Shown: positions 1-58,020, counted from the stretch's first letter. The stretch: 64,000 nt of DNA from Clostridia bacterium (GCA_017625915.1 JAGAJV010000038.1:5471-69470), one strand, 5' to 3'. Numbers and translations are program-made. Notes: generated from the letters alone by a model not told the origin.

Positions 1-2295
1 ACTAGCTTTTGCAACTGTAACAAGTGCGGTGTAAAGCGTCATATAAGCACTAATTTTATCGTCAGTTAAACCTTGTACCCAGTATCTTTCGCGTCCACGT
101 CTTACATACCAGTTAGAAAGCTCGTCAACAAAGCTATCAAGTGCTTTTGCTGCTTCTGGAATTTTGTAATTTTCAAGGCAAGAATCAACTTCCTTAATCA
201 TAGAGTTCATTCTGGAAAGAAGCCATTTATCCATTACGGAAAGCTTACAATCCTTTAATGAATACTTGCTTGGGTCAAATTTATCAATGTTTGCATATAG
301 AACATAGAACGCATATGTGTTCCAAAGAGTACCCATGAACTTTCTTTGTCCTTCAATAACCGCCTTACCGTGGAAACGGTTTGGAAGCCAAGGAGCAGAG
401 TTTGTGTAAAAGTACCATCTAATAGCATCAGCACCATATGATTCAAGTGCTTCAAATGGGTCAACTGCATTACCCTTTGACTTGGACATTTTTTGTCCAT
501 TTTCATCTTGAACATGTCCGAGGACAATTACATTCTTATATGGAGCCTTATCAAAAATGAGTGTTGAAATTGCAAGCAAAGAATAGAACCAGCCTCTTGT
601 TTGGTCTACAGCCTCGGAAATAAAGTCAGCGGGGAATTGACTATCAAATAAATCCTTGTTTTCAAATGGATAGTGATGCTGCGCAAAAGGCATAGCTCCA
701 GAGTCAAACCAACAGTCAATAACCTCGGGCACGCGCTTCATTTGACCGCCACATTTTTCACATTTGATAGTTACATTATCAACAAATGGTCTATGGAGCT
801 CAATATTGTCAGGACAATTATCAGACATTGACTTTAATTCTTCAATCGAACCAATAGAATGTCTGTGACCGCATTCGCATTCCCAGATATTAAGAGGAGT
901 ACCCCAATATCTGTTACGGCTAAGTCCCCAGTCCTGAACATTTGCAATCCAAGAGCCGAAGCGTCCTTTACCGATAGATTCTGGGATCCAGTTAATTGTA
1001 TTGTTATTTTTAATTAGATTGTCACGAACTGCGCTCATCTTGATAAACCAAGATTCTCTTGCATAGTAAATTAGTGGTGAATCACATCTCCAACAGAATG
1101 GGTAATCGTGCTCAAACTTAGGAGCATCAAATAGCTTTCCTTCCTTTGAAAGATCTTGTAAAATAACAGGATCGGCCTTTTTAACAAACATATCAGCATA
1201 AGGTGTTTCCTTAGTCATTTCACCCTTTGCATTTACAAACTGTACAAATGGTAAATCATAATTTCTACCTACACGAGAGTCATCCTCACCAAATGCAGGA
1301 GCAATATGAACGATACCTGTACCATCTTCCATAGTTACATAACCATCGCATGTGACAAAGTGAGCTTTTTTATTTTGCTTTTTAGCACTTTCGCCTGCGC
1401 AAGCAAATAATGGCTCGTATTCTTTATACTCTAATTCCTTGCCCTTATAGGTTTCAAAAATTTCATATGCCTTTTGTCCCTCTTCCTTAGCTAAAGGTGA
1501 GAGAACCTTATCAAGAAGAGCCTTAGCCATATAATAGGTGTAACCGTCAGCTGCCTTTACCTTGCAATAATCCTCGTCGGGGTTTACACAAAGCGCTACG
1601 TTAGAAGGTAAAGTCCATGGAGTTGTTGTCCAAACTAGGAAATATGCATCCTCGTTTACAATTTTAAATCTTGCAATAGCAGAGCGCTCCTTAACAGACT
1701 TATAGCCCTGTGCAACCTCATGAGAGGATAAAGGAGTACCACAGCGTGGGCAATAAGGAACAATCTTAAAGCCCTTATAAAGAAGTCCCTTATCCCAAAT
1801 TTGCTTTAGTGCCCACCATTCGGATTCAATAAAGTTGTTGCTATATGTTACATAAGGGTTATCCATATCAGCCCAGAAGCCAACAGTTGAGGAGAAGTCC
1901 TCCCACATTCCTTTATATTTCCAAACACTTTCCTTGCACTTTGCAATAAATGGGTCAAGACCATACTCTTCAATTTGCTCCTTGCCATCAAGACCAAGTA
2001 GCTTTTCAACTTCTAATTCAACCGGAAGACCATGTGTATCCCATCCAGCTTTTCTTGGCACCATATAGCCCTTCATCGTTCTATATCTTGGAATCATATC
2101 CTTAATAACACGAGTTAGAACGTGTCCAATATGAGGCTTACCGTTTGCAGTTGGAGGACCATCATAAAAAGTGTAAGAAGGACAGTTTTCACGCATTTTT
2201 ATACTTTTTTCAAAAATAGCATTATCCTTCCAAAATTGTTCAGTTGCTTTTTCTCTTTCAACAAAGTTTAGATTAGTAGAAACCTTATCGTACAT
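1..2295 (-). CDS. ileS: Isoleucyl-tRNA synthetase, type 2 (5' ~765 codons; 3' end runs off the window)
   Basis: Absent from the ORF track because its stop lies beyond position 1. Reverse translation from ATG 2295-2293 reads [25 protein letters not shown]...[13 protein letters not shown] (HIGH), CPRCGT zinc knuckle, KMSKSKGN (KMSKS). My spot translations of the 5' end and of roughly positions 1-530 were stop-free, but I did not translate the whole frame. SD AAAGGA lies upstream. Confidence 0.9.
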
Positions 2296-2322
2296 TTTTA
2301 AAAATCCTTTCTTGATTAAAAT

Positions 2323-2355
2323 GAAAAATCCCTTCTTGTATGTACAAGAAGGGAT
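2323..2355 (-). terminator. Intrinsic terminator ending the ileS leader
   Basis: On the minus strand ATCCCTTCTTGTA / TACAAGAAGGGAT forms a near-perfect hairpin followed by TTTTT. It lies about 30 nt upstream of the ileS SD. Confidence 0.75.
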
Positions 2356-2555
2356 AAAAATTAACTCATCACTTGTCAACATACATTACAATATGTGTCT
2401 CATATAACGGTGAGATGCCGTCAACGGCTACTAATTTCGCCGTGAAGCTCTGGAGTGATATTCACATATTGACTACTCGTATCGGTCTTACACCATCACC
2501 GACTCGCTAAAACCTTTTATCAATAGCTACTGTCTCCTTCGTAGCATTTATACAA
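2356..2555 (-). promoter_or_regulatory. T-box-like leader (Stem I recognisable, candidate Ile specifier ATC)
   Basis: Minus strand shows GAAGGAGACAGTAGC (AGAGA/AGTA-like box) and TTAGCGAGTCGGT-GATGGTGTAAG-ACCGATACGAGTAGTC (AGCGA, distal loop and AG-bulge pattern like glyQS Stem I). The stem TATTGA/TCAATA is followed by GTGAATATCAC, which contains ATC followed by A. The canonical GGGTGGTACCGCG T-box was not seen; only AAATTAGTAGCCGTTGACGG resembles it. Confidence 0.55.
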
Positions 2556-2560
2556 TATTG

Positions 2561-2589
2561 ATTTTAACACTAACTTTTTTATTTGTCAA
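2561..2589 (-). promoter_or_regulatory. Sigma-A type promoter for the ileS leader
   Basis: Minus strand TTGACA (2589-2584), 17-nt spacer, TAAAAT (2566-2561). Confidence 0.6.
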
Positions 2590-2591
2590 CC

Positions 2592-3983
2592 TTAAAATCT
2601 TAATTTTTCTTCAATATAATTCTTGAGCTCGCTAATTGGAAGTCTTACTTGCTCCATTGTATCTCTATCACGAACAGTTACGCAGCCATCAGTCTCAGAC
2701 TCAAAGTCGTAAGTGATGCAGAATGGCGTACCGATTTCGTCTTGTCTTCTATATCTTTTACCGATAGAGCCTGTTTCATCAAAGTCAACATTGAAATACT
2801 TTGAAAGATTTTCATATATTTCAGAAGCCTTATCGGAAAGCTTTTTAGAAAGTGGAAGAATAGCGGCCTTTACAGGAGCTAGGGCAGGGTGAAAGTGAAG
2901 AACTGTACGAACATCGTTTTCACCAACAACCTCTTCGTCGTAAGCCTCAACTAAGAATGCAAGAGTTACTCTATCAGCACCGAGTGATGGCTCAATAACA
3001 TATGGAACATATTTTTCGTTTGTTTCAGCATCAAAGTATTCCATGTTTTCACCTGAAAGATTAGCGTGCTGTGTTAAGTCGTAATCTGTACGGTCAGCAA
3101 TGCCCCAAAGCTCGCCCCAACCGAATGGAAATAGGTATTCAAAGTCAGTTGTAGCCTTAGAATAGAAGCAAAGCTCTTCGGGATCATGGTCACGAAGTCT
3201 AAGATTTTCCTTCTTCATACCAAGATTATATAGGAAGTTAGCACAATAGTCCTTCCAATAAGCAAACCATTCAAGGTCAGTTCCGGGCTTACAGAAGAAT
3301 TCAAGCTCCATTTGCTCAAACTCACGAATACGGAAAATAAAGTTACCTGGGGTAATTTCATTTCTAAAGGACTTACCAATTTGACCAACACCAAACGGAA
3401 GCTTCTTTCTTGTTGTTCTTGCAATATTTTTAAAGTTTACAAAAATACCTTGTGCAGTTTCTGGACGAAGATATAATTCAGATGAGGAATCCTCTGTTAC
3501 GCCTTGGAATGTCTTATACATAAGGTTAAACTTTCTAATGTCAGTAAAGTCACCACTACCGCAAGAAGGGCAAACAATCTTCTTATCCTTTATAAAAGAG
3601 AACATTTCCTCGTTGGACATTGTAGCTGGATTTGTGCTATCGTTATTTTCGGCAGCCCAATCCTCGATTAGCTTGTCTGCACGATGTCTTGTCTTACATT
3701 GCTTACAGTCCATAAGTGGGTCAGAGAAGCCGCCAACATGTCCTGATGCTACCCAAACCTGTGGATTCATTAAAATTGCGCTATCAAGACCTACATTGTA
3801 TTTTGATTCTCTTACAAACTTTTTCCACCAAGCTCTTTTAATGTTGTTTTTAAATTCAACGCCTAAAGGACCAAAATCCCAAGAGTTAGCAAGACCACCA
3901 TAAATTTCAGAGCCAGGATAAACGAAGCCTCTTGTTTTGCATAAAGCAACAACCTTTTCCATTGTCTTTTCAGTATTGTTCAT
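2592..3983 (-). CDS. glyQS: Glycyl-tRNA synthetase (alpha2 class II type)
   Basis: Track ORF 2592..4019. I prefer the start at Met13 ([41 protein letters not shown]), preceded by AAAGGA. Full-length GlyRS-like sequence. Short leader with TTGAAA/TATAAT promoter and no T-box visible. Confidence 0.9.
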
Positions 3984-24120: not shown

Positions 24121-24816
24121 ATGATTGCTGTATTAAGTAGCTTGATTAGCAAAAAATTTGAACAATTTACAGGAATAAGAGCTTTACCTTTAAAGCCTTT
24201 CTCTAAGCTAGATTTACCCGTTTCAACTCATGCTGATATGTTATTGTGTGTTTTAGATAATAGAGTTTTTTGCTATAAAGATTATTTTTTTGATAATGTA
24301 AGCTTATTTGAGGGGCTAATGCAAAAAAATTATCAAATAACAATCATAGATAAGGATTGTAAGAAAAAATATCCAAACGACATTGCTCTAAATGTATTAG
24401 TTATTGGGAAAACGCTATTTTGTAACGAAAAATATACTGCCAATGAAATCCTTACTTATGCCAAAGATAGAGAATATAAGATTATAAATGTAAAGCAAGG
24501 ATATTCGGCTTGTTCAACATTTGTGATTGATAAAAAACATGCCATTACTGCTGATATGGGAATGAAAAGAGCATTAGAAAAAGAAAATATTGATGTAACT
24601 CTAATTTCAAATGAAGGAATAAAACTAGATGGCTATAATTATGGATTTATTGGTGGAAGTGGTGTAATTATTGATGATACAGCATATTTTTTTGGTAATA
24701 TAAAAACACATCCGGATTTTGAAAAAATCAGAAAAGCTCTTGACAATAAAAATATTAAAATTTTTAGCATATTACCAAATGATGTGTACGATTTTGGTGG
24801 CATAAAGTTGTTTTGA
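24121..24816 (+). CDS. Conserved-looking hypothetical protein (231 aa, soluble)
   Basis: Good SD (GGAGGAA). No motif I can assign with confidence (STHADM, GFIGGSG segments). Confidence 0.6.
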   Translation: MIAVLSSLISKKFEQFTGIRALPLKPFSKLDLPVSTHADMLLCVLDNRVFCYKDYFFDNVSLFEGLMQKNYQITIIDKDCKKKYPNDIALNVLVIGKTLFCNEKYTANEILTYAKDREYKIINVKQGYSACSTFVIDKKHAITADMGMKRALEKENIDVTLISNEGIKLDGYNYGFIGGSGVIIDDTAYFFGNIKTHPDFEKIRKALDNKNIKIFSILPNDVYDFGGIKLF

Positions 24817-24852
24817 ATGTATATTTGATAAGTAAAATACGAACAATATTTT

Positions 24853-24872
24853 AAACGAAATATATTTCGTTT
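24853..24872. promoter_or_regulatory. Perfect 20-nt palindrome AAACGAAATATATTTCGTTT
   Basis: All 10 pairs are complementary. It lies 37 nt after the stop of 24121..24816 and 17 nt before the micro-ORF start. It could be a weak terminator, a 5' stem-loop or an operator. Confidence 0.4.
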
Positions 24873-24888
24873 AGAAGGGAAATGTAAT

Positions 24889-25026
24889 ATGAATAATTAT
24901 CAAAACAAAAACCAAAACAATCAAAATAATCAAAATAATCAAAACCAAAATAAGCAAAATAATCAAAACCAAAATAAGCAAAATAATCAAAACCAAAATA
25001 ATCAAAACCAAAACAAAAATAGATAA
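24889..25026 (+). CDS. Micro-ORF encoding a 45-aa Asn/Gln-rich peptide (MNNYQNKNQNNQNNQNNQNQNKQNNQNQNKQNNQNQNNQNQNKNR)
   Basis: Not in the track (under 60 aa). SD GAAGGGA ends 8-9 nt before ATG 24889. TAA at 25024-25026. Composition 24 N, 14 Q, 4 K, plus M, Y, R. A strong terminator begins 14 nt after the stop. Confidence 0.5.
   Translation: MNNYQNKNQNNQNNQNNQNQNKQNNQNQNKQNNQNQNNQNQNKNR
24931..25002 (+). repeat. Three tandem copies of a 24-nt unit (CAAAATAATCAAAACCAAAATAAG), in frame
   Basis: Copies at 24931-24954 and 24955-24978 are identical; 24979-25002 has one G-to-T change. Each encodes QNNQNQN(K/N). A 9-nt CAAAATAAT sub-repeat precedes them. Confidence 0.9.
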
Positions 25027-25039
25027 AGGAAATCCTGAA

Positions 25040-25077
25040 AATACCCGTCGAGTATCTAAATTTGACGGGTATTTTTA
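25040..25077 (+). terminator. Intrinsic terminator after the N/Q micro-ORF
   Basis: AATACCCGTC...GACGGGTATT 10-bp stem followed by TTTT. Confidence 0.8.
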
Positions 25078-25097
25078 TTAAATATTTTAAAAAACAC

Positions 25098-25162: not shown

Positions 25163-26020
25163 ATGGAGTGGATAAGTGAAAGATTCAATCACTTTTTAAC
25201 ATACTTTACAATGATTAGTATAATCGATGTAATTGATATAATTTGCCTAGCTATAGTTTTATATATAGCATATCGCTTTGTAAAAGAAAGACGAGCTGGT
25301 AAGTTAGTGCTGGGTATTTTGTTTTTAGTAGTATTTTTATTTGTATGTCAACTTTTATCGCTAAAAGCTATGAAGTTTATTTTAACAAGCATTTTTGAGG
25401 TGGGAATAGTATTAATAGTAATTGTTTTCCAACCAGAATTAAGAGCTGCACTTGAAAAAATGGGTGATAATTCCATTAAAGGTGTTAAAAGCATAGGCGA
25501 GAGAAAAAATAATACACAAACTCTTGCAATGATAGATGAGGTTTCAAATGCAATTTTTGACCTTGCAAAATCAAAAACAGGTGCAATAATCGTGTTTGAA
25601 AGAAATACAAAGCTTGGCGATCTTATTTTGACAGGTACAGTTATTAATGCACAGGTTAGTACGTTTTTGATTAAAAACATATTCTTTAATAAAGCGCCTC
25701 TACACGACGGGGCTGTAATAGTTAGAGATAATAGATTATATTCAGCTGGTTGCCTATTGCCTCTTTCAGTAAATCCTGATATTATTAAGGATTTAGGTAC
25801 TAGACACCGCGCAGCAATTGGTGTTAGTGAAAACAGCGACTGCGTAGCAGTAGTTGTATCTGAGGAAACAGGTATAGTTTCCATAGCTCATGAGGGACAT
25901 ATCTATAGAAATTTTACAAGAGCAACGATGAAAAAGCGACTAGAAGAATTTTTAATAAACAATACATCTGAGCAAAAGAAGAAAAACAACTCAAAAATCA
26001 AAGTAAAGTCAAAGAATTAA
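25163..26020 (+). CDS. cdaA: Diadenylate cyclase CdaA
   Basis: Three N-terminal TM helices; DAC domain with LHDGAVIV (DGA) and GTRHRAAIG (RHR) motifs. Confidence 0.92.
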   Translation: MEWISERFNHFLTYFTMISIIDVIDIICLAIVLYIAYRFVKERRAGKLVLGILFLVVFLFVCQLLSLKAMKFILTSIFEVGIVLIVIVFQPELRAALEKMGDNSIKGVKSIGERKNNTQTLAMIDEVSNAIFDLAKSKTGAIIVFERNTKLGDLILTGTVINAQVSTFLIKNIFFNKAPLHDGAVIVRDNRLYSAGCLLPLSVNPDIIKDLGTRHRAAIGVSENSDCVAVVVSEETGIVSIAHEGHIYRNFTRATMKKRLEEFLINNTSEQKKKNNSKIKVKSKN

Positions 26021-26029
26021 GGAGATATT

Positions 26030-26485
26030 ATGGATAAGTTTACAAAAACTACCGAGATAGATATTTCCGCTATGACCGAAATGGAGGATGAAACTCCTAA
26101 GAAAAGCAATGTCGGAAATGTAATAGCGTTTATAAGCTGTCTTATCTTTGCAATAGTTATATGGCTTTTTGTAATGGAAATTGATACATCTTTACAAGAA
26201 AGAGAATATAACGATATTTCAGTTGAAAAAATTGGTGATGCAGGCTACACTGTATCAGGAAATTTAAATGTTGATGTAGTTCTTAAGGGGATTAATAAAG
26301 AACTTGCCGATATAGACAAGGATGATATTCGCGTTGTTCTTGATTTTTCTAAAATCAAGAATATAGATGAAGTTGAAGGTAGAGAACAAGAGTATTCTGT
26401 TGATGTTATTTTACCTGACAATGCAGGAGAAAGTGTTCAAAGCCAAACCACGAATGTCAAAATAACAATTAATAAGGCATCATGA
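26030..26485 (+). CDS. Short YbbR-domain protein (CdaR-like, single domain)
   Basis: N-terminal TM then one YbbR-like beta repeat (VDVVLKG...IRVVLDFS...YSVDVILP...VKITI). Position directly after cdaA. Only 151 aa. Confidence 0.65.
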   Translation: MDKFTKTTEIDISAMTEMEDETPKKSNVGNVIAFISCLIFAIVIWLFVMEIDTSLQEREYNDISVEKIGDAGYTVSGNLNVDVVLKGINKELADIDKDDIRVVLDFSKIKNIDEVEGREQEYSVDVILPDNAGESVQSQTTNVKITINKAS

Positions 26486-37562: not shown

Positions 37563-38150
37563 ATGGAGATTTCTATAAAATATCAGCTTATAACTGCATT
37601 ACTATCAGTATTTATTGGTGTATTTATTGGCTTGATATATGATGCTTTTAAAATTTTTAGAATTTTATCGGGATTAGAATTTTCAAGTAAGCTACAAAAA
37701 AGAATAGAGACAATAAAATTGCCCATTATTAAAGGCTTGAAAATAAAAAATACCAAATTTAGCAATATAAAAAGAAAAATTTTATATGTATTATGGGATT
37801 TACTATTTTTTGTGGTGATAACGCCGATAATGCAAGTTTTTATTTATGCAACATCAAGTGGTGTTGTACGGTGGTATATCATTTTAGGAGCATTTTTAGG
37901 GTTTATTATTTATTATTTCACTGTTAGCAAAATCGTATCAATAGTATATGAATATACTTTGTTGGTGCTTAAAATAATATTTTCATATATAACTTATTTC
38001 ATAAGATTACCATTTAATAAATTAATTTTAGTATTAAAAATAAAATTGAAAAAGCATAAGGAAAAGCTAGCAAACAAAAAAACATCAAAGGAAAAGAAAA
38101 CGAATACGGGTATGCGACAAAAAATAGTATCATATGGTAAATGCAAATAA
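37563..38150 (+). CDS. yabQ: Spore cortex biosynthesis protein YabQ
   Basis: Multi-TM protein directly after yabP, with a basic C-terminal tail. Confidence 0.75.
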   Translation: MEISIKYQLITALLSVFIGVFIGLIYDAFKIFRILSGLEFSSKLQKRIETIKLPIIKGLKIKNTKFSNIKRKILYVLWDLLFFVVITPIMQVFIYATSSGVVRWYIILGAFLGFIIYYFTVSKIVSIVYEYTLLVLKIIFSYITYFIRLPFNKLILVLKIKLKKHKEKLANKKTSKEKKTNTGMRQKIVSYGKCK

Positions 38151-38187
38151 AAAATCACCATTTATGCTTAGCAAAAATGGTGATTTT
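38151..38187. terminator. Bidirectional terminator between yabQ and the DUF1540 gene
   Basis: AAAATCACCATTT...AAATGGTGATTTT 13-bp stem flanked by A-run and T-run. Confidence 0.8.
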
Positions 38188-38245
38188 CTTCACGGACAAT
38201 TCATGAATAAACAAAAATTCATGATACCGCAGCAACAGAAAAGTC

Positions 38246-38437
38246 TTAGTGACAGCCTTTATCTGAGCAGTTACGACCTAGAACAAAAGATTCACAGTCC
38301 ACACACTGAGAAACAGTGGGATTACATTCATGAGTACCAATGCTAACAGTATCTAAAACACAATAGTTTGTGTCCTTTGCATGGTTAGCGCATGAAACAA
38401 CAGTACATTTAATACAATGGTTTGGTTGCTTATTCAT
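38246..38437 (-). CDS. DUF1540 Cys-rich protein
   Basis: Duplicated C.V..C..H......C motif (IKCTVVSCANHAKDTNYC / VSQCVDCESF); 63 aa; SD GGAG. Confidence 0.75.
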   Translation of the reverse strand: MNKQPNHCIKCTVVSCANHAKDTNYCVLDTVSIGTHECNPTVSQCVDCESFVLGRNCSDKGCH

Positions 38438-38570: not shown

Positions 38571-38646
38571 TCTGGGTATAGCGCAGATGGTAGCGCGCTA
38601 CCTTGGGGTGGTAGAGGCCGTGGGTTCAAATCCCGCTACTCAGACC
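38571..38646 (+). tRNA. tRNA-Pro (anticodon GGG), CCA encoded
   Basis: Manual cloverleaf: acceptor CTGGGTA/TACTCAG (one G-T pair), D arm GCGC/GCGC, anticodon stem CTACC/GGTAG with loop TTGGGGT (U33, GGG, G37), T arm GTGGG-TTCAAAT-CCCGC, then A-CCA. Confidence 0.88.
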
Positions 38647-38654
38647 AAATATAG

Positions 38655-56006: not shown

Positions 56007-56780
56007 TTATATTTGCTTTTTCAACCTTTCAAGTGCGCATTTTTCAAGACGGGACACTTGTGCTTGTGATATGCCAATTTCTGAGGCGATTTCGCTTTGC
56101 GTCTTGCCTGCATAAAAACGCATGTCAATTATTTTCTTTTCTCGCTCGTTTAAGGTTTTCATAGCCTCTTTTAAAGCAATATCTTCAATCCATAATTCAT
56201 CATCCGAGCTTGTGTCTCGTATTTGGTCCATTATAAACAGAGAGTCCCCTGAATCGTTAAAAACTGGCTCGTAAAGCGATACAGGCTCACTTATTGCTTC
56301 AAGTGCAGAAACAACGGCCTCTTTCTTTTCGTTTAGTTTTTCTGCAATTTGCTCAACAGTGGGCTCTGAAAAGCTTTCTCTTGTAAGCTCCTCGCGTGTT
56401 TGTAAAGCTTTATAGGCCAAATCTCTTACCGACCTTGATACTCTTATTGAATTGTTATCGCGTAGATACCTTCTTACCTCTCCAATTATCATAGGTACCG
56501 CATAAGTGGAAAATTTCACCTCTAAATCAGTGTTAAAATTGTCAATTGCCTTTATTAGGCCAATACAACCAACCTGAAATAAATCATCCATATTTTCTTT
56601 TCTAGAGGAAAAACGTTGAATTATAGAGAGCACAAGCCTTAAATTGCCATCTATAAGTTTCTCACGTGATTTTAAATCCCCTTGTTTAGATTTTAATAGT
56701 AATTGCCTTTTTTCGTCTTCCTTTAATACCTTTAATTCGGCGGTATTAACTCCACATATTTCAACCTTATTATAATGCAT
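56007..56780 (-). CDS. sigG: Sporulation sigma factor SigG
   Basis: NKVEICGVNTAELKVLKEDE N-terminus, GNLRLVLSIIQRF, DDLFQVGCIGLIKAIDNF, KFSTYAVPMIIGEVRRYLRDNNSIRVSRS and ISQAQVSRLEK. It is closer to SigG than to SigF. Confidence 0.88.
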   Translation of the reverse strand: MHYNKVEICGVNTAELKVLKEDEKRQLLLKSKQGDLKSREKLIDGNLRLVLSIIQRFSSRKENMDDLFQVGCIGLIKAIDNFNTDLEVKFSTYAVPMIIGEVRRYLRDNNSIRVSRSVRDLAYKALQTREELTRESFSEPTVEQIAEKLNEKKEAVVSALEAISEPVSLYEPVFNDSGDSLFIMDQIRDTSSDDELWIEDIALKEAMKTLNEREKKIIDMRFYAGKTQSEIASEIGISQAQVSRLEKCALERLKKQI

Positions 56781-56859
56781 ATTTTGCTCCTAATCTTTAT
56801 CAAGATTATTGACAAAAAATATTAATTTTTATACAAATATAATATGGCAATTTATGCTA

Positions 56860-57903
56860 TTAAATCAATATTTCAGGCATTGCTGATAACATATTTTCAA
56901 TAAAAATTCCATAGCCTTCGGTAGGGTCGTTAATTAGTACGTGTGTGACTGCACCAACTAATTTTCCATTTTGAATTATAGGACTTCCGCTCATACCTTG
57001 TACAATGCCACCTGATCTTTCAAGAAGCCTTTTATCAGTAATTGTTACTTTAAAATTTTTTGTTGAGTTATTACTCAGATCAATATTGGAAATTTGCACA
57101 GAATATTTTTGTGGCTTTTCATCTCCAAGCGTACACCAAATATATGCATCTCCCTCTATTAATTCTTCCTTTAAGCATAGCTTCATTTTTTCTTCAGGAG
57201 ATTTTAGTACTGAGGAGAGAAGACCGAATACCCCACAAGAAGAATTTTCAGTGAGTGTACCTATTTTTTTAGTGTTAAATGTTCCTTTTAATTCTCCGGC
57301 TTGACCAATTTGGCCCTTTAAAACTCCATTTATCTTTACATCAAGTACTGTGCCATGTGATAATGGAATTACATTACCATTTATACTATCGCAAATGCCG
57401 TGTCCTAGCCCACCAAAGGCGTTATTTTCAGGATTAATAAATGTAACAGTTCCAATACCTGATGTAGAATCCTTTATCCAAATTCCGGTCTTATATTTAC
57501 CCTCATCCATAGAATATTTAGGAGTTACTTTAAAATTATATTCTTTATCATTTCTCAAAACTGTTACATTTACACCGTTTTTACCACATTTATCAATTTG
57601 TGTTGTAAAATCCTCAATTGTATTAATTTCTATATTGTTAGCCTTAATAATTATGTCGCCTAATCTTAATCCTGCGTTTTTGGCAGGTGAATTACTATCA
57701 ATAAATTTTACTATTTGCAGTCCCTTAGTTTGAATTTTTACACCGAATGGCATTCCACCGGGATATAATTCAATTTTTGTTAAATCTAAATCCTCTGTCT
57801 TATTTGAATTGTATAAATAATCCGTAGCATAGCTATTTATTGAAAATAAAACAACAATAATCAAAAAAGAGAGAAGACTTAGAATTTTATTTACTTTTCT
57901 CAT
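56860..57903 (-). CDS. spoIVB: SpoIVB peptidase (S55) with PDZ domain
   Basis: Signal/TM, PDZ (AGLRLGDIIIKANN), GIGTVTF and GMSGSPI catalytic motifs. I prefer Met8 (SD AAGGAAA) over track start 57924. Confidence 0.88.
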   Translation of the reverse strand: MRKVNKILSLLSFLIIVVLFSINSYATDYLYNSNKTEDLDLTKIELYPGGMPFGVKIQTKGLQIVKFIDSNSPAKNAGLRLGDIIIKANNIEINTIEDFTTQIDKCGKNGVNVTVLRNDKEYNFKVTPKYSMDEGKYKTGIWIKDSTSGIGTVTFINPENNAFGGLGHGICDSINGNVIPLSHGTVLDVKINGVLKGQIGQAGELKGTFNTKKIGTLTENSSCGVFGLLSSVLKSPEEKMKLCLKEELIEGDAYIWCTLGDEKPQKYSVQISNIDLSNNSTKNFKVTITDKRLLERSGGIVQGMSGSPIIQNGKLVGAVTHVLINDPTEGYGIFIENMLSAMPEILI

Positions 57904-58020
57904 AATTTTCCTTAGCCCTTTCATTTTTGTTCATAATTAATTTGTGTTTTTATTGATTAATTATGTTTAACAATTTTATAAGACTATGAAATTTAATTCC
58001 AAATAAAAAATTTAAATATA

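Follow-up and report, generated by a model that had tools for sequence, protein, structure and literature searches.

A predicted forespore-type micro-gene for an Asn/Gln-rich peptide between the DUF6873 and cdaA genes of Clostridia

SspE, the gamma-type small acid-soluble spore protein (SASP) of the Bacillales (Pfam SASP_gamma), is rich in Gln and Asn. Proteins of this type are thought to be an amino-acid reservoir, and they are absent from all clostridial genomes examined (PMC3533761, PMC8452069). Minor SASPs and comparable proteins are short hydrophilic peptides with sigmaF/G promoters, mostly without a known function, and SASP genes in general are easily gained and lost (PMC3533761). In Clostridioides difficile, the spore-associated protein GerG (CD0311) contains Asn-rich low-complexity repeats, which vary in number among strains and drive gel formation in vitro (PMC5241399). 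Here, a locus that recalls these systems is described from a 64,000-nt stretch of Clostridia bacterium DNA (GCA_017625915.1 JAGAJV010000038.1:5471-69470), which is called the window below and is numbered from its first letter. Positions 24817-25080 hold a small self-contained gene with its own promoter, a 5′ hairpin, a ribosome-binding site, a 45-codon open reading frame (ORF) and an intrinsic terminator, and the encoded peptide consists almost only of Asn (N) and Gln (Q). At a rough probability of 0.45, and by analogy, this micro-gene would specify a SASP-like depot or protectant peptide that is made in the forespore, a counterpart of the gamma-type SASPs.

The likeness to SspE lies in small size, very high hydrophilicity, richness in Gln and Asn, and internal repeats (the composition of SspE being taken from general knowledge). 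It extends to the layout of the gene, which is monocistronic, with a strong Shine-Dalgarno sequence (SD), a terminator and a forespore-type promoter that, for the micro-gene, is predicted. In contrast to SspE, the N/Q peptide lacks the GPR cleavage motif, E-[FIY]-[AG]-S-E. There is also no sequence similarity between the two, with no Pfam match even at E = 10, and the N/Q family is far more extreme, with 67-89% N+Q and almost no Glu, Gly, Ala or Phe. Moreover, it is found in Clostridia, where sspE is absent, and its distribution there is patchy and narrow. As for the DNA-binding alpha/beta-type SASPs and their helix-turn-helix-like fold, no Pfam or NCBIfam profile matches the peptide, and AlphaFold2 predicts no helices.

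Q/N-rich prion-like domains, such as the yeast prion domains and, among bacteria, that of Clostridium botulinum Rho, resemble the peptide in amino-acid composition, a resemblance drawn from general knowledge only; they make up only part of large proteins, but the product of the micro-gene is a Q/N tract from end to end. The minor SASPs and other small forespore proteins (SspH, Tlp, SspN, SspO, SspP and the DUF1540 proteins) are likewise short and hydrophilic and have sigmaF/G promoters, as predicted for the micro-gene, but they are not low-complexity repeats, and the N/Q peptide has no match to any such family. GerG is similar in being clostridial and in having Asn-rich low-complexity repeats of varying number. 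Nevertheless, Asn makes up only about 30% of it and is joined by Met, Pro, Ser and Gly in the GMPNNMSNNMNSNM unit, and its function is carried by flanking non-repeat regions, whereas the N/Q peptides are almost only N and Q, are 45-94 aa long and have no Met- or Pro-containing repeat. In effect, the GMPNNMSNNMNSNM motif (taken from PMC5241399) is absent from all nine peptides compared, which contain no Pro and no Met other than the initiator. No homology to GerG was detected, although no direct alignment with GerG was made. The peptide matches no profile and has neither a GPR site nor the repeat motif of GerG. It therefore falls outside the gamma-SASP and GerG families and may be regarded, by analogy, as a non-homologous member of the same kind of small hydrophilic spore protein.

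A conserved reading frame rich in Asn and Gln

The coding sequence runs on the plus strand from an ATG at 24889 to a TAA ending at 25026. Its 45-residue product, MNNYQNKNQNNQNNQNNQNQNKQNNQNQNKQNNQNQNNQNQNKNR (MNNYQNKNQ at the start and QNKNR at the end), contains 24 N and 14 Q, that is 38/45 (84%), together with 4 Lys, 1 Arg, 1 Tyr and the single Met, and each of the 14 Gln codons is CAA. The start and stop codons, the length, the 38/45 N+Q, the four Lys and one Arg and the exclusive use of CAA had been given in an initial annotation of this DNA and were reproduced by translation and counting. It is the only N/Q-rich open frame in any of the six frames of the window, which has a GC content of 33%. 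The peptide has a grand average of hydropathy (GRAVY) of -3.4, an isoelectric point (pI) of 10.6 and 2.0 nitrogen atoms per residue.

The frame is built on a tandem repeat. Tandem Repeats Finder calls a period of 24 nt (8 codons), with 3.6 copies and 96% matches, at 24922-25007 (+), a span that contains the three in-frame units described earlier at 24931-25002; periodicities of 9 and 15 nt are nested within it. Among assemblies of the same species, L002 and L005 carry the identical 45-aa form, while L007 carries a 61-aa form that is 48 nt, or two units, longer. These two forms agree with the earlier proposal that slippage in the repeat would change the length of the peptide without breaking its frame. 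Five further contigs of the species (L003, L004, L008, L009 and L010) end within the repeat, and the scaffolds L001 and L006 carry N-gaps there. Since short-read assemblies break or gap inside the repeat, the copy number in any one assembly is uncertain and published copy numbers are unreliable. As to where the contigs break, the sequence ends at codon 21 of the ORF in four of them and at the first codon in L004.

An N/Q-rich ORF occupies the same slot between the DUF6873 gene and cdaA in seven further species-level lineages, in which the DUF6873 protein is 51-71% identical to that of the window. These seven ORFs are 67-80% N+Q. Given with the DUF6873 identity, they are of 75 aa in L091 (71%), 55 aa in L092 (68%), 49 aa in L159 (63%), 51 aa in L098 (59%), 70 aa in L154 (60%), 94 aa in L155 (57%) and 61 aa in L018 (51%). 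The gene order rpmB, DUF6873, slot, cdaA, a 150-aa membrane protein and a flavin adenine dinucleotide (FAD) protein is kept across species. All orthologous peptides begin with M-x-(N/K)-N-(Q/I)-(N/Q), and all end in N-R, R-R or K-R except that of L018, which runs beyond its paired arginines to the acidic end ...RREQNQEED.

Several observations indicate that this frame is translated. The SD and the start codon are common to the orthologues. Every indel between orthologues is a multiple of 3 (57; 48; 15, 21, 15 and 9; 3, 18 and 9 nt), and no orthologue shows a frame-breaking indel or has lost the SD or the start, which the initial annotation had named as observations that would speak against a gene. 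Mismatches at codon positions 1/2/3 number 1/6/13, 8/8/20 and 7/5/18, an excess at the third position. In addition, N+Q is held at 67-89% although the repeat unit, the GC content of the ORF (18-41%) and the choice of codons all vary. For instance, the L018 ORF, at 41% GC, uses CAG 20 times against 8 for CAA and AAC 12 times against 8 for AAT, and it is still 79% N+Q. Thus, what is conserved is the amino-acid composition and not the nucleotide repeat. A conserved frame, conserved translation signals, indels in multiples of 3 and a third-position excess are all found, and together they argue with high confidence that ORF 24889-25026 is a conserved protein-coding gene.

Other frames have some claim to attention. 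Owing to base composition, the repeat is also free of stop codons in a second frame of the plus strand and in two of the minus strand. The gene caller picked a minus-strand ORF in L154, and in the in-phase antisense frame, too, a change between CAA and CAG is synonymous (Leu). Nevertheless, a conserved SD, start and stop accompany the N/Q frame only, and the minus-strand frames, one of which might have proved to be the conserved one, have no conserved start: the ATG that the gene caller used for the antisense ORF of L154 reads ACG in the sister lineage L098, and the longest antisense ORF of the window starts inside cdaA and would have to cross the terminator and the cdaA promoter. The first ATG lies in the N/Q frame in L098 but out of it in L154, and only the N/Q frame offers a usable start in the two alike.

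The properties of the product are also kept. Nine peptide versions were compared (window, L007, L091, L092, L159, L098, L154, L155 and L018); their GRAVY is about -3, their pI 10-11.6, their nitrogen content 1.8-2.05 atoms per residue, and their hydrophobic residues number at most 5. The net charge (K+R-D-E) is exactly +5 in eight of the nine, despite lengths of 45 to 94 aa and differing combinations of K, R, D and E; the sole exception is L018, at +2. AlphaFold2, run on the single sequence, gives no secondary structure and a mean predicted local distance difference test score (pLDDT) of 58, a low confidence that tells only that no fold is predicted. The peptide is extremely hydrophilic and, as far as such modelling goes, apparently unstructured.

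The initial annotation had recognised no named family in this composition, and database searches agree. A Pfam scan with the window peptide and eight family members, at E up to 10, gave no match and no SASP family, and NCBIfam gave neither a match for the peptide nor a SASP family. With Rfam 15, the best overlapping matches reach 17-24 bits against gathering thresholds of 47-60, with E >= 2, which is chance level. HMMER-type searches, one with the peptide alone, one with the eight-member alignment and one over an exhaustive library of 1.84 billion proteins, also found no match, but they are nearly blind to such a family. Their null result is uninformative, because the score is lost to composition correction and the collection lacks the short forms. 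By exact look-up, it contains none of the five short forms tried (45-75 aa) and has L155 only in the gene caller's 137-aa version, not in the 94-aa reading. Gene calling is in fact inconsistent at this locus: L154 was given an antisense 95-aa ORF (2205-2492, minus strand), L155 an N-terminally extended 137-aa product (2218-2631, plus strand), and nothing was called in L001, L006 and L098. When JGI metagenome contigs were searched for AAACGA-N5-13-TCGTTTRGAARGGA, a pattern of hairpin plus SD, 55 loci came up, all of them chance matches and none with an N/Q ORF.

On a tree of DUF6873 proteins, carriers of the micro-gene are scattered among non-carriers, and a scan of a genome collection with a DUF6873 profile found the ORF at 1 of 80 loci (L018). 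All carriers share a homologous 5′ region, so that the most parsimonious history is one of repeated loss. In L156, which is without the micro-ORF, a homologous terminator directly follows the DUF6873 stop codon; thus, the micro-gene is a unit of about 210 nt that lies between the DUF6873 gene and that gene's terminator.

Promoter, 5′ hairpin and terminator

Upstream of the ORF, the alignment shows three conserved blocks amid variable sequence: G-x-A-T at -35, A-x-A-A-T-A at -10, and TCGTTT-x-GAA-x-G, which comprises the 3′ arm of the hairpin and the SD. In the window, the first corresponds to a -35-like element GTATA at 24819-24823 (+) and the second to a -10-like element ACGAACAATA at 24839-24848 (+), 15 nt downstream. 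Scored against the B. subtilis consensus sequences (PMC3416734, Table 4; the host here being a Clostridia bacterium), GTATA-N15-ACGAACAATA matches 11/13 of the sigmaF consensus GTATA-N14-16-GGNAANAMTR, with a background P of 0.008 per 52-nt segment. All seven orthologues scored reach 10-11/13 in one register, in which 2-5 nt separate the end of the -10 element from the hairpin, and the chance of such scores in a random 52-nt piece of the window is 0.008-0.05. All orthologues keep the -35 block in the form G[TCA]AT[ATG], which fits both GTATA (sigmaF) and GNATA (sigmaG), and the overlapping sigmaG form scores 8-10/11 in the same conserved register. The sigmaA, sigmaE and sigmaK consensus sequences score at background level and out of register across the orthologues. 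As controls from the same genome, the region upstream of sigG scores 11/13 for sigmaF, the DUF1540 gene 10/11 for sigmaG and cdaA 10/12 for sigmaA, so that the sigmaF score of the micro-gene equals that of the sigG promoter. In C. difficile, sigG is listed as transcribed by sigmaF, and there the sigmaF and sigmaG motifs overlap (PMC7438776).

The initial annotation had proposed a weak promoter TTGATA...TATTTT. The two hexamers are present (24825-24852, spacing 16, 9/12), but TTGATA is not conserved, being TTGGGC in L092 and TTAAAA in L091, and in the orthologues sigmaA matches are out of register; this sigma-70 promoter was rejected. The sigmaF/G-type blocks fit instead, and the promoter is now predicted to be of that type. 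Promoter comparison somewhat favours transcription of the micro-gene in the forespore. The window also contains sigG, spoIVB, yabP, yabQ and spoIIIAA, adjoining a cluster of genes for cell division and the cell wall, as read in the list of ORFs; thus, the source organism carries core sporulation genes.

The perfect 20-nt palindrome AAACGAAATATATTTCGTTT and the SD GAAGGGA noted earlier were found at 24853-24872 and 24874-24880, respectively. By folding and covariation, the palindrome belongs to a stem-loop at 24851-24874 (+), followed by the SD AGAAGGGA at 24873-24880 (+), which lies 8 nt before the ATG and within the invariant block TCGTTT-GAA-G. In the window, this stem-loop folds at -7.3 kcal/mol (z = -2.9) and leaves the SD unpaired, and it forms at the same position in every orthologue, at -6.6 to -12.4 kcal/mol. 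In a seven-sequence alignment, 95.7% of cells are paired and 4 of the 10 pairs show compensatory changes (e.g. C-G to U-A), a covariation score that was reached by 0 of 500 shuffles. The spacing between the conserved ACGA and TCGT cores, as read from the orthologue sequences, ranges from 7 to 13 nt, so the loop is variable. On this comparative evidence, the palindrome is better read as a covarying 5′ RNA hairpin with a variable loop. A dimeric operator was rejected, since the core spacing varies over 7-13 nt and the outer stem pairs covary, and so was a terminator for the DUF6873 gene, as there is no U-tract and the structure is weak (-7 kcal/mol).

From the position of the -10 element, transcription should start in the first bases of the stem, which would place the hairpin at the very 5′ end of the mRNA, at its predicted start, and leave the SD free. 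In Bacillus, a 5′-terminal stem-loop protects mRNA from 5′-end-dependent decay and, by analogy, the hairpin is probably an mRNA 5′ stabiliser. A fusion of the peptide to the DUF6873 protein by stop-codon read-through was also considered. It was rejected: the window ORF is in the same frame, but there is a second stop at 24829-24831, and the frames differ in L091.

At the other end, the intrinsic terminator lies at 25037-25080 (+) and begins 11 nt 3′ of the stop codon. It had been described as a 10-bp hairpin, and it is stronger than that: the arms (25038-25049 and 25064-25075) hold 12 perfect bases, and the 17-bp stem, with a GC core CCCGTC/GACGGG and a U-rich tail, folds at -24.2 kcal/mol (z = -6.6). 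A simple terminator scan did not pick it up. A strong terminator follows the ORF in every orthologue that was folded and, by reading of the sequence, the other ORFs as well. The comparative data thus support the earlier view of a compact, self-contained expression unit for an N/Q-rich peptide.

Proposed function and competing explanations

We infer the sigma factor, the compartment and the function of the micro-gene, the last by analogy. In the proposed sequence of events, sigmaF- and/or sigmaG-RNA polymerase would transcribe the micro-gene in the developing spore, and the 5′ stem-loop would give a long-lived mRNA. The peptide would build up in the core of the spore, where it would serve as a depot or protectant like a SASP, and its degradation at germination would supply Asn and Gln, while its length would drift through in-frame slippage of the 8-codon repeat. 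It would thereby be a functional counterpart of the gamma-type SASPs of Bacillales, which Clostridia are without, and unrelated to them in sequence. Of the possibilities that the initial annotation had left open, a spore component is the one that the evidence favours, and a purely RNA-level element is now unlikely.

Several observations weigh against this proposal. None of the nine peptides contains a GPR cleavage motif and six of them have no Glu at all; with no motif and almost no Glu, the peptide could be degraded only by a different protease. Storage alone does not account for its basic character or for the charge of +5 that is held in 8/9 forms. The gene is missing from most relatives, namely from the slot of L097, L156, L158 and L160 and from 79 of the 80 genome-collection loci, and so it is either dispensable or located elsewhere in those genomes. 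As to the promoter, the sigma assignment is a matter of consensus matching only, the relaxed motif occurs about 13 times in 128 kb of this AT-rich window, and the -10 element has neither the GG of the sigmaF consensus nor the leading C of the sigmaG consensus.

In a bolder variant of the forespore proposal, a variant that is itself unlikely, some uncultured spore-forming Clostridia would have evolved a substitute of their own for gamma-type SASP. A near-pure Asn/Gln peptide of prion-like composition, with a charge fixed at +5, might form a reversible, hydrogen-bonded gel in the dehydrated spore core, possibly on nucleic acid, and be broken down as a nitrogen store at germination, with its length tuned among strains by slippage.

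Among the competing explanations, the one that survives best, unlikely as it is, holds that this is a genuine small protein unconnected with sporulation. Growing or stressed cells would make it from a weak sigmaA-type or other promoter, and it could act as a disordered polar and basic binder of nucleic acid or of the envelope, possibly tied to the c-di-AMP (cyclic di-AMP) genes. The fixed charge of +5 suggests a binding partner, the sigma-70-like TTGATA-16-TATTTT does score 9/12, and consensus-based promoter assignment is error-prone in AT-rich DNA. Nevertheless, the sigmaA -35 element is not conserved, and sigmaA matches drop to 7-8/12, out of register, in the orthologues, where the conserved blocks are instead GTAT(A/T) and AAxAATA at sigmaF/G spacing. 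The micro-gene also always adjoins cdaA, but the DUF6873-cdaA backbone is kept whether or not the ORF is present, and thus this adjacency carries little information.

It is improbable that the product is a mother-cell or coat/matrix peptide, either a Gln/Lys chain cross-linked by spore transglutaminase or a gel like that of the Asn-rich repeats of GerG. The presence of both Gln and Lys would suit cross-linking, GerG is a precedent for gel-forming, Asn-rich spore proteins of variable repeat number (PMC5241399), and GTATATTT resembles the sigmaE -35 consensus TYATATTT at 7/8. Against this, the CATA-type -10 element that sigmaE and sigmaK promoters need is absent, the scores for these two factors are not above background and not in register across the orthologues, and the GerG repeat motif is lacking.

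A role as a leader peptide, in which ribosomes stalling on Asn and Gln codons would sense tRNA charging and control terminator read-through into cdaA, is very improbable. As in the leaders of amino-acid operons, a short ORF enriched in particular codons, here of two codon families, is closely followed by a terminator, and then by cdaA. In Bacillus, c-di-AMP is linked to glutamine and glutamate status, a further point in favour. In contrast to those leaders, however, the micro-gene has no antiterminator alternative: a repeat search found no antiterminator pairing, but only A-rich/T-rich complementarity of 70-75%. Between stop codon and terminator there are anywhere from about 5 nt, in L098, to about 50 nt, in L018, the length of the ORF varies twofold, and the Rfam match to Thr_leader, at 17.6 bits against a gathering score of 55, is at chance level like the others. 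Moreover, cdaA has a promoter of its own, TTGGCA-17-TG-n-TATACT (extended -10, sigmaA), which lies downstream of the micro-gene terminator and is conserved, also in most of the ORF-less loci (L097, L156 and L160, but not in the 38-nt gap of L158); a leader-peptide role is therefore unlikely, and by this arrangement of signals transcription of the micro-gene is independent of cdaA. Finally, an untranslated A-rich microsatellite or RNA element with an incidental ORF, or a hydrophobic Leu/Ile/Val-rich antisense peptide as the real product, is scarcely credible in view of the translation signals and the composition that are kept in the N/Q frame.

Genomic neighbourhood and significance

The upstream neighbour, at 24121-24816 (+), encodes a DUF6873 protein that is identical to MBO5439309.1, from a metagenome-assembled genome named 'Clostridia bacterium'. 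His37, Asp39 and Cys131, together with several Gly/Asp motifs, are invariant across 31 homologues, one of which is named 'N-dimethylarginine dimethylaminohydrolase' by one source. There are hints here of a Cys-His-Asp hydrolase acting on guanidino or amide groups. The enzyme occurs both with and without the micro-gene. Downstream, the CdaA gene (25163-26020) is always directly followed by a gene for a 151-aa protein (26030-26485, +) that has one predicted membrane segment, is conserved in all related loci and gives no Pfam or NCBIfam match; it sits where CdaR (YbbR) would be expected.

Farther along the window, sigG (56007-56780, minus strand) is preceded by GTATA-N16-GTCAATAATC, within 56781-56834, which matches 11/13 of the sigmaF consensus. 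Just upstream of sigG and on the same strand are spoIVB (56860-57924) and the spoIIIA operon (about 58.9-63.5 kb). The DUF1540 gene (38246-38437, minus strand) is a Cys-rich ORF of 63 aa with a sigmaG-type promoter, GAATA-N17-CATTATA, at 38510-38482, after which come a short hairpin, GAAATC-gaaa-GATTTC, and then an SD. Its layout of promoter, 5′ hairpin, SD and small ORF is the same as that of the N/Q micro-gene. A longer plus-strand ORF that overlaps it (38134-38346) is probably spurious, and a tRNA-Pro (GGG) gene lies at 38572-38647 (+), between clpX and the DUF1540 gene.

The micro-proteins described here form a family that is mostly unannotated, compositionally extreme and taxonomically narrow, being conserved in a few uncultured spore-forming gut Clostridia. 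Such a family falls in a blind spot of annotation, as compositional filters in HMMER and BLAST hide it, assemblies break within the repeat, and gene callers miss the ORF, extend it or choose the wrong strand. Near-pure Asn/Gln peptides with a conserved net charge are rare in bacteria, and they would offer a simple natural model of how polar low-complexity sequences behave in a dehydrated cell. If the proposal made here is true, a non-homologous N/Q-rich forespore peptide would be a concrete candidate for the gamma-SASP role in clostridial spores.

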